Part shown: positions 1 to 11,249 of the stretch, piece after piece
How the letters are laid out: the number at the start of each line of letters is the position of its first letter
How positions within the stretch are numbered: position 1 is the stretch's first letter
IMG/VR virus record: IMGVR_UViG_2859793810_000003
DNA length: 11,249 nt
From: a virus
Lineage: Duplodnaviria; Heunggongvirae; Uroviricota; Caudoviricetes
Strand: one strand, 5' to 3'
The notes under the pieces: model-generated
What the model was told of the DNA's origin: nothing
The model's database searches: none
What the model saw: the letters and a program-made list of their open reading frames with translations, nothing else
Translations under genes and position numbers: made by a program

Positions 1-819
1 ATGTGTCAGGTATTTGGTGTATCCAGGAGCGGTTATTACAACTGGGTACAGCATGAACCCTCAGACAGAAAACAAAGTGATGAGCGGCTAAAACCGGAGA
101 TTAAGGTGGCACATATCCGCACTCGCGAAACATATGGAACCCGGCGGCTCCAGACGGAGCTGGCAGAGAATGGCATCATCGTTGGTCGTGACCGACTGGC
201 ACGTCTTCGTAAGGAGCTGAGGCTACGCTGTAAGCAGAAACGCAAGTTCAGAGCGACTACGAACCCGAACCACAATCTGCCAGTTGCGCCAAATCTGCTG
301 AACCAGACGTTCGCTCCTACAGCACCAAATCAGGTCTGGGTGGCGGACCTGACGTATGTTGCCACACAGGAGGGATGGTTGTACCTCGCTGGCATCAAAG
401 ATGTTTATACGTGTGAAATTGTCGGCTACGCCATGGGAGAGCGCATGACAAAAGAGCTGACAGGTAAAGCCCTGTTTATGGCGCTCAGGAGCCAGCGCCC
501 ACCTGCCGGGCTAATCCACCACTCTGATCGAGGTTCACAGTACTGCGCATACGATTACCGGGTCATACAGGAGCAGTCTGGTCTGAAAACATCAATGTCG
601 CGTAAAGGTAACTGTTACGACAACGCTCCGATGGAAAGCTTCTGGGGAACGCTGAAAAATGAGAGCCTGAGCCACTATCGTTTTAATAACCGGGATGAAG
701 CCATCTCAGTAATACGGGAATACATTGAGATTTTCTACAATCGTCAGCGTCGTCACTCTCGTCTGGGGAATATCTCCCCGGCAGCCTTCAGGGAAAAATA
801 TCATCAGATGACTGCTTAA
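1..819 (+). CDS. IS3-family transposase OrfB (DDE integrase catalytic region), IS600-like; the OrfAB frame presumably continues upstream of the window
   Basis: 272-aa ORF with IS3-family OrfB character (HHSDRGSQY, CYDNAPMESFW motifs); one nucleotide different at the C-terminus from the copy at 8826-9644 (HQMTA vs HQMAA). Confidence 0.85.
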   Translation: MCQVFGVSRSGYYNWVQHEPSDRKQSDERLKPEIKVAHIRTRETYGTRRLQTELAENGIIVGRDRLARLRKELRLRCKQKRKFRATTNPNHNLPVAPNLLNQTFAPTAPNQVWVADLTYVATQEGWLYLAGIKDVYTCEIVGYAMGERMTKELTGKALFMALRSQRPPAGLIHHSDRGSQYCAYDYRVIQEQSGLKTSMSRKGNCYDNAPMESFWGTLKNESLSHYRFNNRDEAISVIREYIEIFYNRQRRHSRLGNISPAAFREKYHQMTA

Positions 820-862
820 AAAAAGAACAAATGGTAGTGTCCGCTATTGCCAGTACACCTCA
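1..862 (+). mobile_element. IS3-family insertion sequence (IS600-like), right-hand portion only; left end lies outside the window
   Basis: OrfB-type transposase ORF at 1-819; a near-identical inverted copy sits at 8783-9731; both copies share the same 43 bp after the orfB stop and diverge immediately after ...cagtacacctca (862 here), which defines the IS right end with the CA terminus typical of IS3-family elements. IS600 assignment is from memory of the OrfB sequence. Confidence 0.8.
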
Positions 863-1169
863 CTGACATGCTAAAGCAAAAAATAGATGAATAAGTTGAG
901 TTGTGCATATGTAGCCTGACCGTCACAAAGTATATGGTGTCTGTACCAGTAAGATGATGGCCGGACTCTTTAAAAAAGAGCTGACCTGCACAATACAGGA
1001 TGGACTTAGCAATGGCTGCTCCTGGCACAAAGCGGACAGTGATCACCGTTCTTACGACTACTTTCTGACTTCCTTCGTGACTTGCCCTAAGCATGTTTGA
1101 AGTGGCACACTGAATTTGGCCACCTGAACAGAGGTGATATGCTCACCTCAGAACAACACAGGTGCTCCA

Positions 1170-2338
<1,169 letters not shown>

Positions 2339-2346
2339 CCACTTCA

Positions 2347-2397
2347 GTTGTAGTGCGATACTTGTAATGACATTTGTAATTACAAGAGGTGTAAGAC
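2347..2397 (+). promoter_or_regulatory. relBE operator/promoter region (relO-like TTGTAAT / ATTACAA inverted hexads) with Shine-Dalgarno AGAGGTG
   Basis: Sequence cTTGTAATgacatTTGTAATTACAAgaggtgtaagacATG directly upstream of relB; palindromic hexads seen in sequence. Precise promoter elements not determinable here. Confidence 0.5.
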
Positions 2398-2637
2398 ATG
2401 GGTAGCATTAACCTGCGTATTGACGATGAACTTAAAGCGCGTTCTTACGCCGCGCTTGAAAAAATGGGTGTAACTCCTTCTGAAGCGCTTCGTCTCATGC
2501 TCGAGTATATCGCTGACAATGAACGCTTGCCGTTCAAACAGACACTCCTGAGTGATGAAGATGCTGAACTTGTGGAGATAGTGAAAGAACGGCTTCGTAA
2601 TCCTAAGCCAGTACGTGTGACGCTGGATGAACTCTGA
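2398..2637 (+). CDS. relB: RelB antitoxin (type II TA, RelB/DinJ family)
   Basis: 79-aa protein MGSINLRIDDELKARSYA...RNPKPVRVTLDEL, near-identical to E. coli K-12 RelB as I recall it; stop overlaps relE start (ATGA overlap). Confidence 0.93.
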   Translation: MGSINLRIDDELKARSYAALEKMGVTPSEALRLMLEYIADNERLPFKQTLLSDEDAELVEIVKERLRNPKPVRVTLDEL

Positions 2638-2924
2638 TGGCGTATTTTCTGGATTTTGACGAGCGGGCACTAAAGGAATGGCGAAAGCTGGGCTCGACGG
2701 TACGTGAACAGTTGAAAAAGAAGCTGGTTGAAGTACTTGAGTCACCCCGGATTGAAGCAAACAAGCTCCGTGGTATGCCTGATTGTTACAAGATTAAGCT
2801 CCGGTCTTCAGGCTATCGCCTTGTATACCAGGTTATAGACGAGAAAGTTGTCGTTTTCGTGATTTCTGTTGGGAAAAGAGAACGCTCGGAAGTATATAGC
2901 GAGGCGGTCAAACGCATTCTCTGA
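2637..2924 (+). CDS. relE: RelE toxin (ribosome-dependent mRNA endonuclease)
   Basis: 95-aa protein MAYFLDFDERALKEWRKL...SEVYSEAVKRIL, recognised as K-12 RelE; translationally coupled to relB. Confidence 0.93.
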   Translation: MAYFLDFDERALKEWRKLGSTVREQLKKKLVEVLESPRIEANKLRGMPDCYKIKLRSSGYRLVYQVIDEKVVVFVISVGKRERSEVYSEAVKRIL

Positions 2925-2995
2925 ACCAAAGCATGACATCTCTGTTTCGCACCGAAGGTGACACTTCTGCTTTGCGTTGACAGGAGAAGCAGGCT

Positions 2996-3151
2996 ATGAA
3001 GCAGCAAAAGGCGATGTTAATCGCCCTGATCGTCATCTGTTTAACCGTCATAGTGACGGCACTGGTAACGAGGAAAGACCTCTGCGAGGTACGAATCCGA
3101 ACCGGCCAGACGGAGGTCGCTGTCTTCACAGCTTACGAACCTGAGGAGTAA
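2996..3151 (+). CDS. hokD: Hok-family type I toxin HokD (RelF), 51 aa
   Basis: Not in the ORF track (below length cut-off). Own translation: MKQQKAMLIALIVICLTVIVTALVTRKDLCEVRIRTGQTEVAVFTAYEPEE, a Hok-family membrane peptide; position downstream of relBE matches the K-12 relBEF arrangement. Confidence 0.85.
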   Translation: MKQQKAMLIALIVICLTVIVTALVTRKDLCEVRIRTGQTEVAVFTAYEPEE

Positions 3152-3220
3152 GAGACCCGGCGAGTGAGAAATCCCTCGCCACCTCTGATGTGGCAGGCAT
3201 CCTCAACGCACCCGCACTTA

Positions 3221-3250
3221 ACCCGCTTCGGCGGGTTTTTGTTTTTATTT
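3221..3250 (+). terminator. Rho-independent terminator downstream of hokD
   Basis: Hairpin cccgc-ttcg-gcggg followed by TTTTTGTTTTTATTTT. Confidence 0.6.
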
Positions 3251-3368
3251 TCAACGCATTTGAAGTTCTGGATGGTGCCGGAATAGAATCAAAAATACTT
3301 AAGTAGCGCGCAGGGATAAAAGGGATGGACCCCGAACAGGGGAGTGCTACTTATCTGGAAGGATTCTG

Positions 3369-3620
3369 ATGATGAACATCGAAGAACTGCGTAAAATTTT
3401 TTGTGAAGATGGCCTCTATGCTGTGTGCGTTGAAAATGGAAATATTGTTAGTCATTACCGCATTGTGTGTTTGCAAAAAAATGGGGCTGCGTTAATTAAT
3501 TTTGTGGATGCCCGAGTGACGGACGGATTTATCTTGCGCGACGGTGAGTTTGTCACTTCATTACAGGCATTGAAAGAGATCGGAATAAAAGCTGGCTTTT
3601 CTGCTTTTTCAGAAGAATAA
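3369..3620 (+). CDS. rem: Small prophage protein, Rem-like (Qin prophage rem), function unknown
   Basis: 83-aa ORF with Shine-Dalgarno GGAAGGA upstream; sequence and position (between hokD and ydfU-like gene) match my recollection of K-12 rem; symbol from memory. Confidence 0.6.
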   Translation: MMNIEELRKIFCEDGLYAVCVENGNIVSHYRIVCLQKNGAALINFVDARVTDGFILRDGEFVTSLQALKEIGIKAGFSAFSEE

Positions 3621-3686
3621 ACTCATCTACAATCTTGCGCGGGGCTGAACTCCCGCTGAGTAACACCGTGCCACCGGAGAAAACCG

Positions 3687-3887
3687 ATGGCACGCAACGC
3701 AAAATATTACAATCATGATAATTCGACCGTTCTTGCCCACACGCACGAGCGGTATTCTCACGCATTTAAGTCAGACTGGTACCAGCATCCCTCATGCACT
3801 GAAGAACAGGCCGAATGGCTTATTCAGTGTTACCGCAGGCGCGGATGCGAGGTTAAAAAAGCCCTTAGCCTCGACTACCGTCACTAG
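3687..3887 (+). CDS. Hypothetical small phage protein (66 aa, Cys/His-containing)
   Basis: ORF with Shine-Dalgarno GGAGA 8 nt upstream of the ATG; not recognised. Confidence 0.4.
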   Translation: MARNAKYYNHDNSTVLAHTHERYSHAFKSDWYQHPSCTEEQAEWLIQCYRRRGCEVKKALSLDYRH

Positions 3888-3966
3888 ATAATCTCCGTCA
3901 GGCTCCCTTACTCCGAACAGCCACCGCGTCCGTCCCGCACATTCCAGCAACGGATCTGGAGGTAAC

Positions 3967-5016
3967 GTGCGGGTATTACTTCGACCTGTTCTGGTTCCGG
4001 AACTCGGGCTGGTGGTCCTTAAGCCCGGTCGTGAATCCATGCCGGTATTCCACAATACCCGGGTACTGGTGGAGCCGGAACCGAAAAGCATGCGTAATCT
4101 GCCGTCCGGGGTCGTTCCTGCCGTTCGCCAGCCGCTAGTGGAAGACAAAACATTGCTGCCGTTTTTCAGTAACGCACGGGTGATTCGTGCTGCTGGTGGT
4201 GCTGGCGCATTGTCTGACTGGCTGTTGCGCCATATTAAATCCTGCCAGTGGCCACACGGCGATTATCATCACAGCGAAACCGTCATTCACCGTTATGGTA
4301 CCGGCGCAATGGTATTGTGCTGGCACTGCGACAACCAGCTGCGTGACCAGACATCCGAATCACTCGAGCAACTTGCTCATCAAAACCTGTCAGCATGGAT
4401 GATTGACGTCATCGGTCACGCAATAAGCGGTACGCAGGAGCGTGAATTATCTCTGGCTGAATTATCCTGGTGGGCGGTCCGCAATCAGGTGGCGGACGCG
4501 CTACCGGAAGCGGTATTACGTCGTTCGCTGGGGTTGCGTGCGGAAAAAATCCGCTCAATGTACCGTGAAAGCGACATCGTGCCGGGAGAGCAGACCGCCA
4601 CCAGCATACTGAAGCAGCGCACAAAAAATCTTGCGCCGCTGCCTCACGCCCACCAGCAACAGAACCCACAACAGGAAAAGACGGTGGTCAGCATTGCCGT
4701 TGATCCTGAGTCTCCGGAATCTTTCATGAAACGACCTAAACGTCGCCGCTGGGTTAACGAGAAATACAAACGCTGGGTGAAGACACAGCCGTGTGCGTGT
4801 TGTGGTAAGCCAGCCGACGATCCCCATCACCTGATTGGTCATGGTCAGGGCGGAATGGGGACCAAATCTCACGATATTTTCACGCTACCGCTGTGTCGGG
4901 AGCATCACAACGAGCTTCATGCGGATCCTCTGGCGTTCGAAGAAAAGCATGGTTCTCAGGTTGATTTAATTTTTCGTTTTCTTGATCACGCCTTTGCAAC
5001 TGGCGTGCTTGGGTAA
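3967..5016 (+). CDS. ydfU: YdfU-like DUF968 prophage protein with C-terminal Cys/His (HNH-like) motif
   Basis: 349-aa ORF, GTG start preceded by GGAGG; N-terminus MRVLLRPVLVPELGLVVLKPG and overall sequence recalled as K-12 YdfU; C-terminus contains CACCGKPADDPHHLIGHG...CREHHNELH. Confidence 0.75.
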   Translation: MRVLLRPVLVPELGLVVLKPGRESMPVFHNTRVLVEPEPKSMRNLPSGVVPAVRQPLVEDKTLLPFFSNARVIRAAGGAGALSDWLLRHIKSCQWPHGDYHHSETVIHRYGTGAMVLCWHCDNQLRDQTSESLEQLAHQNLSAWMIDVIGHAISGTQERELSLAELSWWAVRNQVADALPEAVLRRSLGLRAEKIRSMYRESDIVPGEQTATSILKQRTKNLAPLPHAHQQQNPQQEKTVVSIAVDPESPESFMKRPKRRRWVNEKYKRWVKTQPCACCGKPADDPHHLIGHGQGGMGTKSHDIFTLPLCREHHNELHADPLAFEEKHGSQVDLIFRFLDHAFATGVLG

Positions 5017-5028
5017 AAGAGGTGACTG

Positions 5029-5385
5029 ATGCTCATAGATTTGGTTTTACCTTACCCGCCGACGGTGAACACTTACTGGCGACGCCGTGGCAGCACATAT
5101 TTTATCTCGGAGGAGGGAAAGCGTTATCGCCGGGCTGTGGCGCTTATTGTTCGCCAGCAGCGGCTGAAATTAAGCCTGTCCGGAAGGCTGGCGATAAAGG
5201 TGATTGCAGAGCCACCGGATAAGCGTCGTCGCGACCTGGACAATATCCTGAAAGCACCGCTGGATGCGCTGACGCATGCGGGAGTGTTAATGGACGATGA
5301 GCAGTTTGATGAAATCAATATCGTTCGTGGTCAGCCAGTATCTGGTGGACGTCTGGGGGTGAAGATTTACCCCATAATGCATTAA
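5029..5385 (+). CDS. rusA: RusA-family Holliday junction resolvase
   Basis: 118-aa ORF with Shine-Dalgarno AAGAGGTGA; motif PDKRRRDLDNILKAPLDALTHAGVLMDDEQ matches the RusA catalytic region (K-12 RusA has PDRRRRDLDN...DALT). Confidence 0.85.
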   Translation: MLIDLVLPYPPTVNTYWRRRGSTYFISEEGKRYRRAVALIVRQQRLKLSLSGRLAIKVIAEPPDKRRRDLDNILKAPLDALTHAGVLMDDEQFDEINIVRGQPVSGGRLGVKIYPIMH

Positions 5386-5399
5386 GAGCAGGTCAAAAA

Positions 5400-6221
5400 A
5401 TGAAACTGGAAGATTTACCGAAATACTACTCCCCAAAATCCCCTGGCCTGACCGATGCATCGGCCTCAACGTCAAAAGATGCGCTGAGTATCACTGATGT
5501 GATGGCCGCGCAGGGCATGACACAGAATCGGGCTGAGATGGGTTTTTCTGCGTTCCTGGGGAAAATGGGCATCAGTATGAATGACAGGGCGCGGGCAACA
5601 GAATTACTGGCAGATTATGCACTCAGTCGGTGCGATCGTGTGGCGGCGTTGAGAAAACTTCCGGCAGAAATAAAACCGGTAGTGATGCGCATTATGGCTT
5701 CGTACGCTTTTGAGGATTATGCCCGCAGCGCAGCGAGTAAAAAGCAGTGCCCTTGTTGCTATGGGGAAAAATTTATTGAAAGCATAGTTTTTACAAACAA
5801 GATCCAGTATCCGGATGGTAAGCCGCCGGTATGGGCAAAGTGTACGAAAGGTGTGTATCCGTTTTACTGGGAAGAATGGAAAAAAGTCAGGGAGGTGGTA
5901 AAAGTTGCCTGTCCGGAGTGTGGCGGAAAGGGTGAGGTTTCCACCGCCTGTAAGGATTGCCGTGGGCGTGGTGTCGCCATTCATCGTGAAGAGTCGGTAA
6001 AACGTGGTATGCCTGTTATCAGAGACTGCCAGCGTTGTGGTGGTCGTGGCTATGAAAGACTACCATCAACGGAGGCATTTAATGCTATATGCGAGGTGAC
6101 AAACCAGATAACACGCGCGTCATGGGAAAAAACAGTTAAGAAATTTTATGATGCGCTGGTGACCCGGTTTGATATTGAAGAAGCATGGGCTGAGCGGCAG
6201 TTAAAAAAGGTAACTAGGTAA
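5400..6221 (+). CDS. Late-gene antiterminator Q-like protein (QuuQ-like), carrying four CxxCxGxG zinc-finger repeats
   Basis: 273-aa ORF positioned between rusA and a PR'/tR'-like module, as for Q in lambdoid phages; N-terminus resembles my recollection of K-12 QuuQ; four CxxCxGxx motifs (CPCCYGEK, CPECGGKG, CKDCRGRG, CQRCGGRG) seen in the translation. Confidence 0.7.
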   Translation: MKLEDLPKYYSPKSPGLTDASASTSKDALSITDVMAAQGMTQNRAEMGFSAFLGKMGISMNDRARATELLADYALSRCDRVAALRKLPAEIKPVVMRIMASYAFEDYARSAASKKQCPCCYGEKFIESIVFTNKIQYPDGKPPVWAKCTKGVYPFYWEEWKKVREVVKVACPECGGKGEVSTACKDCRGRGVAIHREESVKRGMPVIRDCQRCGGRGYERLPSTEAFNAICEVTNQITRASWEKTVKKFYDALVTRFDIEEAWAERQLKKVTR

Positions 6222-6226
6222 CAAGG

Positions 6227-6254
6227 TTGATTTTTCCGGAATCTGTGGTAAATT
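6227..6254 (+). promoter_or_regulatory. PR'-like late promoter (-35 TTGATT, 16-bp spacer, -10 TAAATT) with a lambda-like initial transcribed region
   Basis: TTGATT...TAAATTcgtcataatgatgggcg resembles lambda PR' (TTGACT...TAAATTtgactcaacgatgggtt) as recalled; located immediately after the Q-like gene. Confidence 0.45.
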
Positions 6255-6303
6255 CGTCATAATGATGGGCGTTTTATGCCTGGCGTTAGAAGAGTTTCTA
6301 CAA

Positions 6304-6327
6304 CCCGCCGCTGAGCGGGTTTTTTTA
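6304..6327 (+). terminator. tR'-like rho-independent terminator
   Basis: Hairpin cccgc-cgctga-gcggg followed by seven T; lies about 50 bp downstream of the PR'-like promoter. Confidence 0.6.
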
Positions 6328-6365
6328 TTGCGAAATTAATTACGGACCGTTATTATTCTGCTCCC

Positions 6366-6441
6366 GGCCCTTTAGCTCAGTGGTGAGAGCGAGCGACTCA
6401 TAATCGCCAGGTCGCTGGTTCAAATCCAGCAAGGGCCACCA
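6366..6441 (+). tRNA. ileZ: tRNA-Ile2 (anticodon CAU, lysidine-type), phage-borne ileZ-like
   Basis: 76-nt cloverleaf folded by hand: acceptor GGCCCTT/AAGGGCC, D-stem GCTC/GAGC, anticodon loop CTCATAA (CAT at 6399-6401), T-loop TTCAAAT, 3' CCA encoded. Sequence much closer to E. coli ileX than to Met tRNAs as I recall them. Confidence 0.85.
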
Positions 6442-6542
6442 TCACAAACCGCCATTAGCTTATCAGGAAGAGCAGACGACACGATAACAGGGTTGTTGGT
6501 GCGGGGGGCGGGTCCCCGATGGCGGTCCATTATCGGTATTCA

Positions 6543-6619
6543 GCGTTGTTAGCTCAGCCGGACAGAGCAATTGCCTTCTAAGCAATCGGTCACTGGTTCG
6601 AATCCAGTACAGCGCGCCA
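6543..6619 (+). tRNA. tRNA-Arg (anticodon UCU, reads AGA)
   Basis: 77-nt cloverleaf folded by hand: acceptor GCGTTGT/ACAGCGC, anticodon stem ATTGC/GCAAT, loop CTTCTAA (TCT at 6577-6579), T-loop TTCGAAT, CCA encoded; similar to argU. Confidence 0.85.
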
Positions 6620-6729
6620 TATTCATTCTTCCAGATTCCTTCCGGCAGAGCCTTATACTGAAATATACCTGGCTCAGGATATTGTTGAAAATATTATATA
6701 TTTGTCAAAAATAAAAGTTCTGTTAAGTA

Positions 6730-7083
6730 TTGATTGAGTATTTGTTATACGGTCTAATGGTTTTTTCAGCATTAAGTATTTATCATTCATATGGTGTGGG
6801 TAGAGTGAATATTGATGAGGCGTCGGGGTGTTTCATCCTTAGGCAGCGTATTGATATAGTCAATGCAGCACGAGCAAAGGCCTTCAGCCGTTTGACAGTT
6901 TTGTTCTGTACTCCTGATCGTCTTTCGGGAAGAGACGTTATTATTCTGAATAGTGATGCTATACAGAGGGTTTGCGATGAGTTCATGGTTGCTAATTCAG
7001 AATTATTTGCTCTTGTTCAGGAGTACAACAGAATAGCCAGGACCTGTGGTATGGATGAACTTCGGATTACTCATCTGGGGTAG
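6730..7083 (+). CDS. Hypothetical protein in cargo region (117 aa from a TTG start; first in-frame ATG at 6757)
   Basis: Only the open frame supports this; no convincing Shine-Dalgarno; visibly AT-rich; contains several AGA/AGG/ATA codons. Not recognised. Confidence 0.3.
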   Translation: MIEYLLYGLMVFSALSIYHSYGVGRVNIDEASGCFILRQRIDIVNAARAKAFSRLTVLFCTPDRLSGRDVIILNSDAIQRVCDEFMVANSELFALVQEYNRIARTCGMDELRITHLG

Positions 7084-7475
7084 ATACATATCTGGATTAT
7101 CACCTGTTACGGTAAAAAGTGATTGCTTACTGTTTTTGTTAATGGCATTGCAGCAGCCGGATAATGTCAGTGCCGGCTGACGGTGTGCTGGTGGCGGGTG
7201 TGGTGGTTGTTGCTTTCCCGTTGCTGAAAAAGAAAACGCCAGACTGTTAGCCGGGTATCAGTTAGCGGGAGAAATTTTTAAATACTTCACAATTCAGGCG
7301 GTTGACTGTTGTCTGGTTTGCGGGGAGTTTGTTAAAAGAAACTGGCATGGTGAATCCCCCTGTGCGGAGGGGCAATCAGCGAGTAGGTATATGGGATAAT
7401 CGCGGATTCAGGTGCTGGTACTGAATTCACCGGGAGGCACCCGGCACCATGGAATGGCACATAGCGCCACTCTCC

Positions 7476-7510
7476 AGCCCCTCTCCGGAGGGGCTGTTTA
7501 TATTGATTTT
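7476..7510 (+). terminator. Rho-independent terminator (perfect 8-bp stem)
   Basis: agcccctc-tccg-gaggggct followed by GTTTATATTGATTTT. Confidence 0.55.
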
Positions 7511-7530
7511 GTCAGATGTGAGTAAACTCC

Positions 7531-7866
7531 TTATGGACTTTGTTGTTTTAGTCCATAAGGGCATATTTGCAGAGTGCAACGGTTATTAAAGCATTCATTC
7601 AATACGTTATCTGTATTTGTAGGGCATTCCTGGCTGTTTTTGATTAAATTCCAGAATGTTTTATTGAATGGTACTACGTTGTAAATGGTTACAGGTAGCA
7701 CTTTGTTATTGAGCATGATGCCTGTGTGAGTCAGTGTAAATATACTTTCAGGAGGTAAGAAAGCATCCGATTGATACCAGATTATTAATTTTATTTTACT
7801 CCATATGACTGAAAAAGATATTCCGCATGATGGCTGGATAACTGTATCAATCACAATCCACTTCAT
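7531..7866 (-). CDS. Hypothetical protein, opposite strand to the phage late operon (111 aa, Cys-containing C-terminus)
   Basis: ORF with good Shine-Dalgarno (AAGGAA, 5-nt spacer, ATG) on the minus strand; AT-rich; a perfect 11-bp inverted repeat (7529-7560) overlaps its stop codon. Not recognised. Confidence 0.45.
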
Positions 7867-8110
7867 TTAGTTTCCTTGTTTATGCCTTGCTGGTGATGTT
7901 CTGAAAAGTATAAATGATATTTTTGAATTAAACCATAGAACAGAATTATTTTTCTGATGTTGTTTATTGTTTATTTAAATGCAGGGTGGTTTATATCTCG
8001 TCTTGTAGTTTATCCATGCATATCTGCTTGATAATCAGGTTTTTATTTAAGGTATGGTTTTGTGTTTTTTCTGTATTACATGTCAGGTATTTTAAAGAAT
8101 TATTTTTCAG

Positions 8111-8314
8111 ATGTTGGAAAGAACCATGGCATTTAAACACTATGATGTTGTCAGGGCGGCGCCGCCGTCAGATCTTGCGGAAAAGCTGACACATAAACTG
8201 AAAGAGGGCTGGCAGCCGTTTGGTAGTCCGGTGGCCATAACCCCTTATACCCTGATGCAGGCGATTGCAGCAGAAGGTGATGTGGTGGTCAGTGGTGCAA
8301 CTGAGCCGGAGTGA
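8111..8314 (+). CDS. Small conserved lambdoid late-region protein (family uncertain); likely start at ATG 8126
   Basis: ORF MAFKHYDVVRAAPPSDLAEKLTHKLKEGWQPFGSPVAITPYTLMQAIAAEGDVVVSGATEPE with GGAAAG 4 nt before the 8126 ATG; sequence feels familiar from E. coli prophages but I cannot name the family reliably. Confidence 0.5.
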   Translation: MLERTMAFKHYDVVRAAPPSDLAEKLTHKLKEGWQPFGSPVAITPYTLMQAIAAEGDVVVSGATEPE

Positions 8315-8556
8315 TACTACGTCATCGTACTGGCCCGGCATTCCAGGCCATAAAAGACAGTCTGGCAGTGGGACTAAATGCACTGACGCTGACGGATATT
8401 ACCAAAAATGCAACGTATGGCGTTGAGATAGAAAGTCTGGTGCTGGAGATAAATGCACCGGCATCATCATAAAAAGTGAGCCAGTCAAATGGAAGGTATC
8501 GTTAAACTCACCGGTAGTGTCAGTGGGTCGTCTGAGACGCTTGCATGAGTTATCAG

Positions 8557-8588
8557 AGCCATCAGTAGTTAACTGGTGGCTTTTTTAT
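8557..8588 (+). terminator. Putative rho-independent terminator upstream of the holin gene
   Basis: agccatcag-tagttaa-ctggtggct (one mismatch) followed by TTTTTTATTG. Confidence 0.45.
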
Positions 8589-8621
8589 TGTTGTCAGCTT
8601 CCGGATAACGGGAGACGGGGT

Positions 8622-8782
8622 ATGGACCAGATGGAAAAAATCACAACAGGTGTGTCATACACCACGTCAGCGGTGGGAACGGGCTACTGGTTCCTGCAGT
8701 TGCTGGACAGGGTTTCCCCGTCTCAGTGGGCGGCAATAGGCGTGCTGGGGAGTCTGCTGTTTGGGCTGCTGACATATCTGAC
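8622..8782 (+). pseudogene. Phage-21-type pinholin (S21 family) gene, 3'-truncated by IS insertion; dual-start motif M-D-Q-M
   Basis: [54 protein letters not shown] resembles S21 pinholin ([45 protein letters not shown]... as recalled); Shine-Dalgarno GGAGA upstream; the reading frame runs into the IS600-like right end at 8783 and terminates after 6 IS-derived codons. Confidence 0.8.
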
Positions 8783-9731
8783 TGAGGTGTACTGGCAATA
8801 GCGGACACTACCATTTGTTCTTTTTTTAAGCAGCCATCTGATGATATTTTTCCCTGAAGGCTGCCGGGGAGATATTCCCCAGACGAGAGTGACGACGCTG
8901 ACGATTGTAGAAAATCTCAATGTATTCCCGTATTACTGAGATGGCTTCATCCCGGTTATTAAAACGATAGTGGCTCAGGCTCTCATTTTTCAGCGTTCCC
9001 CAGAAGCTTTCCATCGGAGCGTTGTCGTAACAGTTACCTTTACGCGACATTGATGTTTTCAGACCAGACTGCTCCTGTATGACCCGGTAATCGTATGCGC
9101 AGTACTGTGAACCTCGATCAGAGTGGTGGATTAGCCCGGCAGGTGGGCGCTGGCTCCTGAGCGCCATAAACAGGGCTTTACCTGTCAGCTCTTTTGTCAT
9201 GCGCTCTCCCATGGCGTAGCCGACAATTTCACACGTATAAACATCTTTGATGCCAGCGAGGTACAACCATCCCTCCTGTGTGGCAACATACGTCAGGTCC
9301 GCCACCCAGACCTGATTTGGTGCTGTAGGAGCGAACGTCTGGTTCAGCAGATTTGGCGCAACTGGCAGATTGTGGTTCGGGTTCGTAGTCGCTCTGAACT
9401 TGCGTTTCTGCTTACAGCGTAGCCTCAGCTCCTTACGAAGACGTGCCAGTCGGTCACGACCAACGATGATGCCATTCTCTGCCAGCTCCGTCTGGAGCCG
9501 CCGGGTTCCATATGTTTCGCGAGTGCGGATATGTGCCACCTTAATCTCCGGTTTTAGCCGCTCATCACTTTGTTTTCTGTCTGAGGGTTCATGCTGTACC
9601 CAGTTGTAATAACCGCTCCTGGATACACCAAATACCTGACACATCGCTTCAATGGGAAATTGTTGTCGCCATTGTTCGATTAACGCGTATTTTTCAGCGA
9701 CTCCTGTGCAAAATACGCTGTTGCTTTTTTT
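8783..9731 (-). mobile_element. IS3-family insertion sequence (IS600-like), second copy, inverted relative to the first; left portion (IRL and most of orfA) missing, truncated by IS1
   Basis: Right end identical to the copy at 1-862 up to the CA terminus (reverse complement at 8783); the OrfAB reading frame continues upstream of the orfB ATG (…KYALIEQWRQQFPIEAMCQVF) and is cut at 9731 directly at an A-rich slippery-like heptamer. Confidence 0.85.
8826..9644 (-). CDS. IS3-family transposase OrfB (IS600-like), copy 2
   Basis: 272-aa ORF, one amino-acid different from the ORF at 1-819. Confidence 0.85.
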   Translation of the reverse strand: MCQVFGVSRSGYYNWVQHEPSDRKQSDERLKPEIKVAHIRTRETYGTRRLQTELAENGIIVGRDRLARLRKELRLRCKQKRKFRATTNPNHNLPVAPNLLNQTFAPTAPNQVWVADLTYVATQEGWLYLAGIKDVYTCEIVGYAMGERMTKELTGKALFMALRSQRPPAGLIHHSDRGSQYCAYDYRVIQEQSGLKTSMSRKGNCYDNAPMESFWGTLKNESLSHYRFNNRDEAISVIREYIEIFYNRQRRHSRLGNISPAAFREKYHQMAA

Positions 9732-9746
9732 GGTAATGACTCCAAC

Positions 9747-10250
9747 TTACTGATAGTGTTTTATGTTCAGATAATGCCCGATGACCTTGTCATGCAGCTC
9801 CACCGATTTTGAGAACGACAGTGACTTCCGTACCAGCCTTGCCAGATGTTGTCTCAGATTCAGATTATGTCGCTCAATGCGCTGAGTGTAACGCTTGCTG
9901 ATAACGTGCAGCTTTCCCTTCAGGCGTGATTCATACAGCGGACAGCCATCCGTCATCCATACCACGACCTCAAAGGCCGACAGCAGGCTCAGAAGACGCT
10001 CCAGTGTGGCCAGAGTGCGTTCACCGAAGACGTGCGCCACAACCGTCCTCCGTATCCTGTCATACGCGTAAAACAGCCAGCGCTGACGTGATTTAGCACC
10101 GACGTAGCCCCAATGTTCGTCCATTTCAGCGCAGACAATCACATCACTGCCCGGTTGTATGCGCGAGGTTACCGACTGCGGCCTGAGTTTTTTAAGTGAC
10201 GTAAAACCGTGTTGAGGCCAACGCCCATAATGCGTGCACTGGCGCGACAT
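9747..10250 (-). CDS. insB: IS1 InsB (catalytic part of the InsAB' transposase, made by -1 frameshift)
   Basis: 167-aa protein ...[38 protein letters not shown]... recognised as IS1 InsB; overlaps insA in the -1 frame. Confidence 0.95.
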
Positions 10251-10444
10251 CCGACGCCATTCATGGCCATATCAATGATTTTCTGGTGCGTACCGGGCTG
10301 AGAGGCGGTGTAAGTGAACTGTAGTTGCCATGTTTTACGGCAATGAGAGCAGAGATAGCGCTGATGTCCGGCAGTGCTTTTGCCGTTACGCACCACGCCT
10401 TCAGTAGCGGAGCAGGAAGGACATCTGATGGAAATGGAAGCCAC
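10169..10444 (-). CDS. insA: IS1 InsA (transposition repressor, N-terminal part of InsAB')
   Basis: 91-aa protein [43 protein letters not shown]... recognised as IS1 InsA. Confidence 0.95.
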
Positions 10445-10499
10445 GCAAGCACCTTAAAATCACCATCATACACTAAATCAGTAAGTTGGCAGCATTACC

Positions 10500-11249
10500 C
10501 TGGTTGTAGACTTGTCTCAGCATATAAGTTGCTGGAATGATTACGGCGGCTGGTACGACACTGATCATATAAACCTGGTACAAGGCTCAGCTTTCGCAGG
10601 CTCCCTACAGTCATATAAAGGATCGCTGTACTGGAATAATGTGACCTACCCCTTCCCGTTGACGACAAATACCAACGTATTGGATATTGGTGATAAGACA
10701 CCGATGCCATTACCGTTAAAACTCTATATTACCCCAGTTGGGGCGGCCGGTGGAGTTGTCATAAAAGCGGGGGAAGTCATTGCCCGTATTCATATGTATA
10801 AAATTGCAACATTAGGAAGCGGAAATCCGCGTAATTTTACGTGGAATATTATTTCAAATAACAGTGTTGTTATGCCAACAGGCGGCTGCACCGTTGATAG
10901 TCGTAATGTCACCGTGGATCTCCCGGACTTTCCTGGAAGCGCAGAAATACCCCTTGGCGTATATTGCTCAAGCGAACAAAAGCTCTCATTTTATCTTTCG
11001 GGTGCCACCACTGACAGTAGCCGACAAGTGTTTGCTAACACAGCACCTGATGCAACAAAAGCATCGGGAGTGGGTGTCACTCTAATGCGTAATGGAAAAA
11101 TACTGGCTACGGGAGAAAATGTCTCCCTGGGGACAGTAAATAAAAGCAAAGTACCTCTGGGTTTAAGCGCAACCTATGGACAAACAGGAAACAAGGTTTC
11201 AGCCGGAACCGTCCAGTCAGTCATTGGTGTCACTTTTATCTATGAATAA
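10500..11249 (+). pseudogene. FimH-like fimbrial tip adhesin gene (chaperone-usher family), 5'-truncated by IS1; 3' end and stop codon intact at window end
   Basis: The frame is open from the IS1 junction; [17 protein letters not shown]...[24 protein letters not shown]...[12 protein letters not shown] aligns by eye with E. coli FimH (LVVDLSTQIFCHNDYPE...VVPTGGCDVSARDVTVTLPDYPGS...VQSIIGVTFVYQ); the signal peptide and start of the lectin domain are missing. Confidence 0.8.

Follow-up and report, generated by a model that had tools for sequence, protein, structure and literature searches.

Why should a complete IS1 lie between part of an IS600 and the 3' part of a fimbrial adhesin gene, with no target-site duplication around it? 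The window, by which we mean the whole 11,249-nt stretch analyzed here (features in Table 1), is identical to Shigella flexneri CP026788.1. The locus is an ordinary genome-decay scar in S. flexneri, in which an IS1 entered the adhesin gene and one of its flanks was then deleted up to an IS600. This type of event is already known, and no new mechanism or type of element is involved.

Table 1. Features of the 11,249-nt window, in order of position
Feature	Position	Strand	Basis
IS600, right-hand 862 bp (nt 403-1264)	1-862	plus	blastn to reconstructed IS600; Pfam rve, HTH_21
ydfV' of Qin-like prophage; 3' end cut by IS600, 5' end by IS911	863-1097	minus	megablast to K-12 ydfV
IS911, simple insertion	1098-2346	plus	3-bp direct repeat GTT at 1095-1097 and 2347-2349
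Qin-like lambdoid prophage remnant	2347-8782	plus	relB, relE, hokD, rem, ydfU, rusA, Q antiterminator, pmrD-like gene, DUF1737
P21-type holin gene, end of prophage remnant, cut by IS600	8622-8782		
IS600 fragment (nt 316-1264)	8783-9731	minus	blastn to reconstructed IS600; Pfam
T7 run, equivalent to A7 in the A7G programmed-frameshift motif of IS600; putative left deletion endpoint, recurrent IS1 target	9725-9731	minus	
IS1, complete, 768 bp	9732-10499	minus	alignment to other full-length copies
insB'	9747-10250	minus	Pfam DDE_Tnp_IS1 match
insA	10169-10444	minus	Pfam InsA match
CTGGTTGTA, surviving copy of the 9-bp target duplication from IS1 entry into ydeQ	10500-10508	plus	relatives
'ydeQ (fmlH orthologue), codons 56-304 + stop	10500-11249	plus	annotation, Pfam, structure match

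The IS1 and its two flanks

Elements of the IS1 family are ~768 bp long, with imperfect terminal inverted repeats (GGTRATG...), and their simple insertions carry an 8-9 bp target-site duplication. The window copy has the length, the terminal inverted repeats and the insA and insB' frames of the family, with Pfam matches to Zn_ribbon_InsA, HTH_Tnp_IS1 and DDE_Tnp_IS1 (E 5.9e-20 to 2.6e-71) and a minus-strand A6C motif at 10191-10197 (T6 at 10192-10197). Its limits were set by aligning 20 other full-length copies, base for base: the IRR, the insB-distal end, starts at 9732 (GGTAATGACTCC...) and the IRL, the insA-proximal end, finishes at 10499 (...GGCAGCATTACC). With the ends fixed by this alignment, no alternative boundary restores a duplication. 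As an earlier, sequence-only reading of this DNA had claimed, the 9 bp on the left (9723-9731, GCTTTTTTT) and on the right (10500-10508, CTGGTTGTA) differ, agreeing at none of the nine positions. Its claim that this is no simple IS1 insertion also stands, with IS600 on one side of the element and ydeQ, an unrelated locus, on the other.

The left flank was compared with a 1264-bp IS600 reference reconstructed from the window and the E. coli O121 locus L001. Like the complete element, an IS3 family member with orfA, orfB and an A7G -1 frameshift, the fragment has both its IRR (at 8783) and its 272-aa orfB frame (8826-9644) intact, and it is 99.5-100% identical to other IS600 copies over nt 316-1264. 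However, it lacks the IRL, the promoter region and the orfA codons upstream of the frameshift site, and is thus not a complete IS600 (1264 bp, both IRs, orfA-A7G-orfB). The break falls at the 5' edge of the A7G motif, between TATATT and AAAAAAAG, in agreement with the proposal that IS600 was cut exactly at its A-rich slippery heptamer. Because the IRL and orfA are missing, the fragment is predicted to be incapable of making the OrfAB transposase or of being mobilized. It still serves as a recombination substrate: some strains have the prophage segment that the two IS600 copies enclose in inverted orientation.

The gene on the right had been described as a truncated fimH-like gene. It is a truncated adhesin, but not fimH: annotation and the match to FmlH identify it as ydeQ, of the F9 (Yde/Fml) operon. 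The remnant matches positions 31-145 of the Pfam FimH_man-bind model, and among solved structures the closest to it is FmlH, the adhesin of the F9 pilus (6aow, chain residues 32-160), with an E value of 2.9e-86 against 3.1e-71 for the best FimH. FimH itself can be discarded from the ydeQ annotation and from this ranking, and the identity is backed by synteny, as the gene adjoins ydeP-safA-ydeO. The remnant shares with FmlH a lectin domain followed by a FimH-like pilin domain, as well as the genomic position, but codons 1-55 and all of the upstream operon genes are absent. The start codon and the signal peptide are among the missing codons, together with ~31 residues of the mature lectin domain, and the window has no ydeR, ydeS or ydeT and no chaperone or major subunit gene, in comparison with the intact six-gene operon in L040. 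Because of these two losses, the product of the remnant is predicted to be neither exportable nor capable of assembly.

The locus before the deletion

Three S. flexneri contigs (L014; L015, which is 71-2783; and L016) carry an IS1 in ydeQ whose site and orientation match those in the window. In L015 a perfect 9-bp duplication, CTGGTTGTA, lies on either side of the element. E. coli 26561 (L002) likewise has two copies around an IS1, and the empty ydeQ site (L024) has the sequence once only. Since the same insertion has its duplication in L015 and L002, the window copy is a true IS1 with a flank that was altered after insertion.

Between the ydeQ IS1 and a complete IS600, the three contigs retain the 5' part of ydeQ, ydeR', ydeS and ydeT', the interval from IS1 to IS600 nt 315 differing in length among them (L014, 3352 bp; L016, 4688 bp; L015, 5912 bp). 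The sequence-only reading had an IS1-mediated deletion or rearrangement remove the left end of IS600, the adhesin gene's 5' part and the fimbrial genes upstream of it. The core of this, an IS1-associated deletion, is supported by L014-L016, which still have these parts, the fimbrial genes as ydeR', ydeS and ydeT'. Since the pre-deletion arrangement is retained in three other S. flexneri genomes, the state of the window would be the product of a deletion of ~3.4 kb or more, anchored at the IRR (insB-side end) of IS1.

The three contigs also carry a second IS1, termed IS1-a, and in L014 and L016 the 5' segment of ydeQ is flipped between two inverted IS1 copies with exchanged flanks. A predicted chimeric ORF of 84 aa, consisting of YdeQ(1-58) and IS1 read-through, is found at 100% identity in S. 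flexneri (P0001). In a collection that also has 2457T, CP026788 and G1663, it is indexed on L014-L016 only, so the ydeQ 5'-IS1 junction was not called elsewhere in window-type genomes. Scanning the contig collection, which does not include the source strain, for the 5' part of ydeQ brought up one further S. flexneri, SFBU0723, in which ydeQ is intact, along with a pair of E. coli and a contig that carries a Nanosynbacter MAG label. In L014-L016 ydfV'-relB lies on the IRR side of the complete IS600, an order collinear with arrangement B in the deleted strains. The junction of this IRR with ydfV' is 7 bp (AGCAACA) longer than in window-type genomes. The 3a-type genomes are therefore no ancestor in the strict sense, and a further small change, or else a separate IS600 event, has to be invoked, a point against the reading preferred below.

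One part of the sequence-only reading fails on the undeleted genomes, namely that the same event removed the rest of the prophage: in these genomes the Qin-like remnant already ends at that IS600, at ydfV'. From arrangements A and B and the undeleted loci, the IS1 event can also be dismissed as the cause of the missing prophage lysis and morphogenesis genes. That the IS600 fragment now adjoins the holin end is due solely to an inversion between IS600 copies that turned the prophage fragment round at a later time (arrangements A and B). Its inverted partner is the IS600 copy at the left edge of the window, where position 1 is the orfB ATG; in related genomes (L004-L013) that copy is complete, with its IRL abutting ydfJ. 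At these ten S. flexneri loci IS911 is missing. The pmrD-like protein of the remnant is widespread in lambdoid prophages, and the look-up yielded nothing on the holin end of the 3a-type genomes.

One step or two

The reading that we lean towards, and consider somewhat more probable than otherwise, is that the IS1 marks where a deletion, anchored at one of its ends, took place by one-step intramolecular "adjacent deletion". IS1-promoted adjacent deletion by intramolecular transposition was reportedly described by Reif and Saedler in 1975 in the gal/IS1 system. The present locus resembles it in that the IS1 is complete, the loss starts at one terminus and ends at a new target, one old junction with one 9-bp copy is retained, the new flanks are unduplicated, and sister strains show repeated nibbling of 25, 159 and 320 bp. 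It differs in that the case here is drawn from comparative genomics and the endpoint lies inside IS600, at the frameshift A7 run. As in an adjacent-deletion product, the IRL-CTGGTTGTA junction is the same as in the undeleted strains and the IRR now abuts IS600 nt 316.

The order of events would then be as follows. IS1 entered ydeQ at codons 56-58, as the relatives show, duplicating CTGGTTGTA; the IRL junction and the one copy at 10500-10508 are the surviving traces of this step. By then a complete IS600 already linked the cryptic F9 (yde/fml) operon to the Qin-like remnant at its ydfV' end. The IRR of the same IS1 would next have attacked the T7 run of IS600 by intramolecular transposition. 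Such a step would remove ~3.4 kb or more, comprising one copy of the duplication, ydeQ codons 1-55 and IS600 nt 1-315 together with a truncated ydeR, ydeS and the usher remnant ydeT', and it would also take IS1-a if the undeleted ancestor carried that element, as L014-L016 do. The IS1 would be left intact and joined to IS600 nt 316 without a duplication. Later, and without this IS1, recombination of the two inverted IS600 copies would have flipped the prophage fragment, such that the IS600 fragment came to face the holin end, and IS911 would then have inserted at its present position. In the end, the adhesin gene would be left as an inert pseudogene and IS600 as a fragment that can recombine but not transpose, next to an intact IS1 which in other strains goes on eroding its flanks.

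Other strains have further deletions at the locus (counted as four; 25, 159 and 320 bp), every one of which begins precisely at an IS1 terminus that is intact. The 25-bp loss is on the IRR side (L004-L006, L008-L010, L012 and L013), the 320-bp loss takes ydeQ sequence on the IRL side (L005, L009 and L013), and the 159-bp loss lies beside the second IS1 in L015. Microhomology was sought at the 25-bp loss by reading the sequence, and none that explains the loss was found. These end-anchored losses appear to favor transposase-mediated adjacent deletion over IS1 x IS1 recombination, although they do not settle the matter. The one-step and two-step routes would leave an identical final sequence.

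In the two-step route, a second IS1 would insert at the IS600 T7 run in the same orientation, with an 8-bp duplication, and RecA-dependent IS1 x IS1 recombination would delete the DNA between, leaving one hybrid IS1. We regard this as possible but rather doubtful. Both halves exist, IS600::IS1 in E. coli O121 (L001, TSD CTTTTTTT) and ydeQ::IS1 with TSD CTGGTTGTA (L002, L015); IS1 x IS1 recombination is seen at the locus in L014 and L016, with their flipped ydeQ 5' segment; and for Shigella the mechanism most often invoked is that homologous IS copies recombine with one another (PMC7373316). However, an intermediate with both insertions was not seen among 20 S. flexneri loci (L004-L023), two events are needed where one is enough, and the 25-, 159- and 320-bp end-anchored losses cannot reasonably be explained in this way. 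The alleles at IS1 positions 101 and 211 count on both sides: the window IS1 has A/A, like unrelated copies, whereas the undeleted ydeQ IS1 of L015 and L016 has C/C, but C/C is also found in the junction IS1 of L006. These positions vary among strains (C/C, A/C or A/A), so gene conversion is active among IS1 copies, weakening the allele argument, and the test for a mosaic IS1 relies on 1-3 variable sites that are themselves polymorphic among strains.

A rearrangement without loss, in which distant IS1 copies exchanged flanks and the reciprocal product (ydeQ 5'-IS1-IS600 left part) lies elsewhere in the chromosome, is improbable. S. flexneri chromosomes are indeed much rearranged via IS copies (PMC8072062; arrangements A and B), and a ydeO-IS1-ydiP-like joint 5 kb downstream (L012) represents another IS1-linked rearrangement nearby. 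Yet on either side of the missing interval, deleted and undeleted genomes remain collinear and keep one relative orientation, a pattern that an inversion would not leave, and the diagnostic 84-aa ORF is indexed on its three contigs alone, none of which is window-type. There is next to no chance that the IS1 inserted simply, with a duplication that was never made or was mutated away, or that the junctions are an assembly chimera across IS repeats. Nothing beyond the general difficulty of assembling IS-rich genomes speaks for either, the flanks come from unrelated IS600 and ydeQ with 0/9 matching positions, and an assembly artefact is ruled out because the same junction pair recurs in at least five S. 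flexneri assemblies that are complete and independent of one another (L011, L018-L021). Recurrent junctions and undeleted relatives together already refute both.

IS1 targets and the loss of F9 fimbriae

Both junction sites have been used by IS1 in other genomes. Three IS1s have struck exactly at IS600 nt 316 (A7G motif), all in one orientation: the copy in S. flexneri, IS1A in E. coli O121, where the IS600::IS1 at this junction has the 8-bp TSD CTTTTTTT, and IS1SD on S. dysenteriae pINV. The ydeQ CTGGTTGTA region has been hit at the same base, or at most 4 bp away, in S. flexneri and several E. coli. Because diverged IS1 isoforms reuse both sites in other genomes, both look like IS1 hot targets. 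We suggest only tentatively that they are true sequence-specific hot targets, used independently by these isoforms. In that case IS1 would time and again inactivate a rival IS at the programmed-frameshift site of the latter, and the loss of the F9 adhesin would be driven in part by target preference and not only by selection.

IS-mediated deletion is a major route of gene loss in Shigella (Hawkey et al. 2020, PMC7373316). With the gene loss described there, and in Seferbekova et al. 2021 (PMC8072062), this locus shares the same five expanded IS types, IS1, IS600 and IS911 all being in the window, the same loss of fimbrial adhesins, and the same deletions and inversions between IS copies. It illustrates the loss of F9/Fml fimbriae during Shigella host adaptation. 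A full-text literature search pairing ydeQ with Shigella turned up, among the papers listed, none on this locus. The practical value is modest; the locus accounts for one pseudogene junction in a reference S. flexneri chromosome. What the present analysis adds to the published work on Shigella IS elements is the stepwise series for ydeQ, from the intact gene through IS1 insertion and the multi-kb deletion to the further losses of 25 bp and then 320 bp, which could be used as a lineage marker.

The IS1 junctions and the adhesin gene

The edges of the IS1 copy were set by aligning 20 other full-length copies, and the 9 bp flanking it on either side (GCTTTTTTT and CTGGTTGTA) have nothing in common. 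The IS600 fragment on its left is broken precisely at the 5' edge of the A7G frameshift motif (TATATT/AAAAAAAG), which reads as a T7 run on the plus strand of the window. Given these aligned edges, unlike flanks and the position of the break, the sequence-only reading was correct in all its coordinates when it described an IS1 without target-site duplication joining a truncated IS600-like element to a truncated adhesin gene, as it was in placing the cut of IS600 at the slippery heptamer.

That reading called the adhesin gene fimH-like and went no further. It is ydeQ, the name that RefSeq gives to the matching gene in thousands of E. coli genomes; ydeP-safA-ydeO come next downstream. Among solved structures the remnant is closest to FmlH, the adhesin of the F9 pilus (6aow, E 2.9e-86, chain residues 32-160), with FimH behind, and a fimH identity was rejected. 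Intact ydeQ has 304 codons (174 + 750 - 9 nt in E. coli 26561), of which the window retains codons 56-304; its start codon and signal peptide are missing, as are ~31 lectin-domain residues.

Features of the window and of two loci with the same IS600/IS1 joint
Feature	Sequence	Coordinates	Strand	Remarks
IS600	window	1-862		
ydfV'	window	between IS600 (1-862) and IS911 (1098-2346)		
IS911	window	1098-2346		GTT 3-bp duplication intact; inside ydfV'
Qin-like prophage remnant	window	after IS911		relBE, hokD, rem, ydfU, rusA, Q, to P21-type holin gene cut by IS600 fragment
IS600 fragment	window	8783-9731	minus	nt 316-1264 of 1264-bp element; IRR at 8783; 272-aa orfB frame intact
IS1, complete, 768 bp	window	9732-10499	minus	insA and insB' present
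Fimbrial adhesin gene, final 750 bp	window	10500-11249		
IS600(nt 316)/IS1-IRR region	L038, S. dysenteriae Sd197 pSD1_197	1623-3328		
IS600(nt 316)/IS1-IRR region	L001, E. coli O121	3002-5041		

The undeleted locus

The ydeQ gene of E. coli 26561 carries an IS1 inserted at the base used in the window and oriented alike, flanked on each side by CTGGTTGTA; an empty ydeQ site (L024) has a single CTGGTTGTA. The chimeric ORF predicted from such an insertion (YdeQ 1-58 running into the insB-side IS1 end, IRR) was matched at 100% identity by P0001, an "adhesin [Shigella flexneri]" found on three contigs (L014-L016), and all three have a Shigella-type IS1 in ydeQ. One of the three, CP024470, is strain 71-2783, serotype 3a. 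The ydeQ IS1 of L015 has a perfect 9-bp duplication. In L014 and L016, a flip of the small segment between two inverted IS1 copies has left each copy with one of the two ydeQ flanks; reversing the flip restores the CTGGTTGTA duplication at one copy and CGCCATTTT at the other. The right IS1 junction in the window is thus an original insertion junction. The flipped segment is 378 bp and carries ydeQ 5'; it lies within 9029-10942 in L014 and L016, a region to which 9188-10942 corresponds in L015.

Reading from the IRR of the ydeQ IS1, the undeleted loci have ydeQ 5', a second IS1, a truncated ydeR, ydeS, the usher remnant ydeT' and a complete IS600, whose IRR points toward ydfV'-relB in the same Qin-like prophage remnant as in the window. 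Five window-type genomes (L005, L008, L009, L011 and L013) are collinear with them on both sides, in the same orientation, and simply lack the stretch reaching from the IS1 IRR as far as IS600 nt 315. The length of this stretch in L014, L016 and L015 is 3352, 4688 and 5912 bp, respectively, with extra IS copies carried. The comparison thus identifies the event as a deletion rather than an inversion. Consistent with this, the diagnostic chimeric ORF of 84 aa is indexed on L014-L016 only, in a collection that also holds 2457T, CP026788 and G1663. The proposal of an IS1-mediated deletion was right in outline. It also blamed the prophage loss on the same event; removal of the lysis and morphogenesis genes by IS1 was rejected, since the remnant in the undeleted genomes already ends at an IS600 by ydfV'.

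Route of the deletion and recurrence of the IS1 targets

Two routes to the deletion yield identical sequence. In a single step, the IRR of the ydeQ IS1 would attack the T7 run of the adjacent IS600 by intramolecular transposition, a classical IS1 adjacent deletion. We lean slightly toward this route, because losses in sister strains all begin at an intact IS1 terminus and because of an IS1 allele in L006. A 25-bp loss of IS600 on the IRR side (window 9707-9731; L004-L006, L008-L010, L012 and L013) leaves the joint ...GACTCCTG/GGTAATGAC, with no microhomology at its ends; a 320-bp loss of ydeQ on the insA side, IRL (window 10500-10819; L005, L009 and L013), joins IRL to CGGAAATCCGCG at window 10820; and 159 bp are lost beside the second IS1 in L015. 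The other route, that another IS1 first entered the T7 run and the two direct copies then recombined, is possible but distinctly less probable. It has a precedent in E. coli O121, where IS1A occupies exactly the T7 position, is flanked by an 8-bp repeat (CTTTTTTT) and has the left part of IS600 on its far side. It is implausible, however, that losses as short as 25, 320 and 159 bp arose through insertion close by and subsequent recombination. The junction IS1 of L006 has C/C at positions 101 and 211, as does the undeleted ydeQ IS1, while unrelated copies have A/A. As an argument for a single-step deletion this allele carries little weight: in other strains, the window included, that IS1 has A/C or A/A, variants that could reflect gene conversion or be those expected of a hybrid IS1.

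Window positions 9707-9731 are missing from most of the related S. flexneri genomes; the T7-run junction persists in G1663, in genomes of the 2457T type and in the window.

The joint of IS600 nt 316 and IS1 IRR aligned in one piece in one of 5426 complete E. coli genomes, and seven S. dysenteriae pINV plasmids have it too. The element in Sd197 is IS1SD (90.5% identity to the window IS1), with no left part of IS600 across it, and between the window IS1 and those of E. coli O121 and 26561 there are 70-71 differences in 768 positions. The joint involves three diverged isoforms in three lineages, and the A7G frameshift motif of IS600 looks like a hot target for IS1. Within ydeQ, the base occupied in the window is also the IS1 site of 26561 and of draft E. 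coli genomes (P0002). XJ5.2 has an oppositely oriented IS1 at a distance of 4 bp (flank GAATCTGGT), and in many other E. coli an IS1 in the ydeQ 5' region lies no more than a few hundred bp off. Independent E. coli insertions at or a few bp from the S. flexneri site, in either orientation, are seen at L003 6034/6035, L002 5272, L039 and L040. Since the same junctions recur with diverged IS1 copies, both sites look like preferred targets, a pattern that fits either route and is the sole mildly unusual aspect of the locus. The locus is otherwise an ordinary IS scar of a kind already known. IS1 adjacent deletions are well documented, as are, in Shigella, recombination between IS copies and the IS-driven loss of fimbriae along with other surface structures (PMC7373316; PMC8072062).

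Neighboring rearrangements and related genomes

The ~7.9-kb prophage fragment at 863-8782, between the inverted IS600 copies at 1-862 and 8783-9731, is found in two orientations. The IS600 fragment faces the holin gene in the window, L004, L006, L007, L010 and L012, and the prophage fragment is inverted in L005, L008, L009, L011 and L013. The presence of both among S. flexneri implies an IS600 x IS600 inversion in which the IS1-truncated copy stayed with ydeQ. At the IS600 IRR/ydfV' joint, L014-L016 read IRR/AGCAACACTGACATG, as in K-12, against IRR/CTGACATG in all window-type genomes, which is 7 bp shorter (AGCAACA missing; joint at window 862/863 and L014 14097/14098). Either these bases disappeared beside the IS600 end in the window-type lineage, as a small adjacent deletion, or separate IS600 events, one an independent insertion, occurred 7 bp apart in the two lineages. 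Because of this difference, the 3a-type genomes approximate the ancestor closely without being the ancestor itself.

CP026788.1 (GCA_002950215.1) is 100% identical to the window over the 11,094 bases available, and AE014073 has one mismatch. We take AE014073 to be S. flexneri 2a 2457T, an accession presumably public since about 2003. IS911, a recent simple insertion with its GTT duplication in contrast to the duplication-less IS1, is carried by CP026788, AE014073, CP106857 and CP100044 and missing from ten other S. flexneri genomes. Related complete genomes are listed as S. flexneri, for example CP007037 (G1663) and CP044152 (AR-0425) (PMC9455713).

In the S. flexneri locus L012, an IS1 at 17044-17811, ~5 kb beyond the window end, links ydeO to an AraC-type gene and then ETF genes. 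It would be another IS1-linked rearrangement near the locus; the AraC-type and ETF genes presumably correspond to a region resembling ydiP-ydiQR. Finally, E. coli ydeS/R/Q at 99.8% identity lie on a 13-kb Saccharibacteria MAG contig (L027, JARKOR010000108.1, labelled Candidatus Nanosynbacter), almost certainly through binning contamination.
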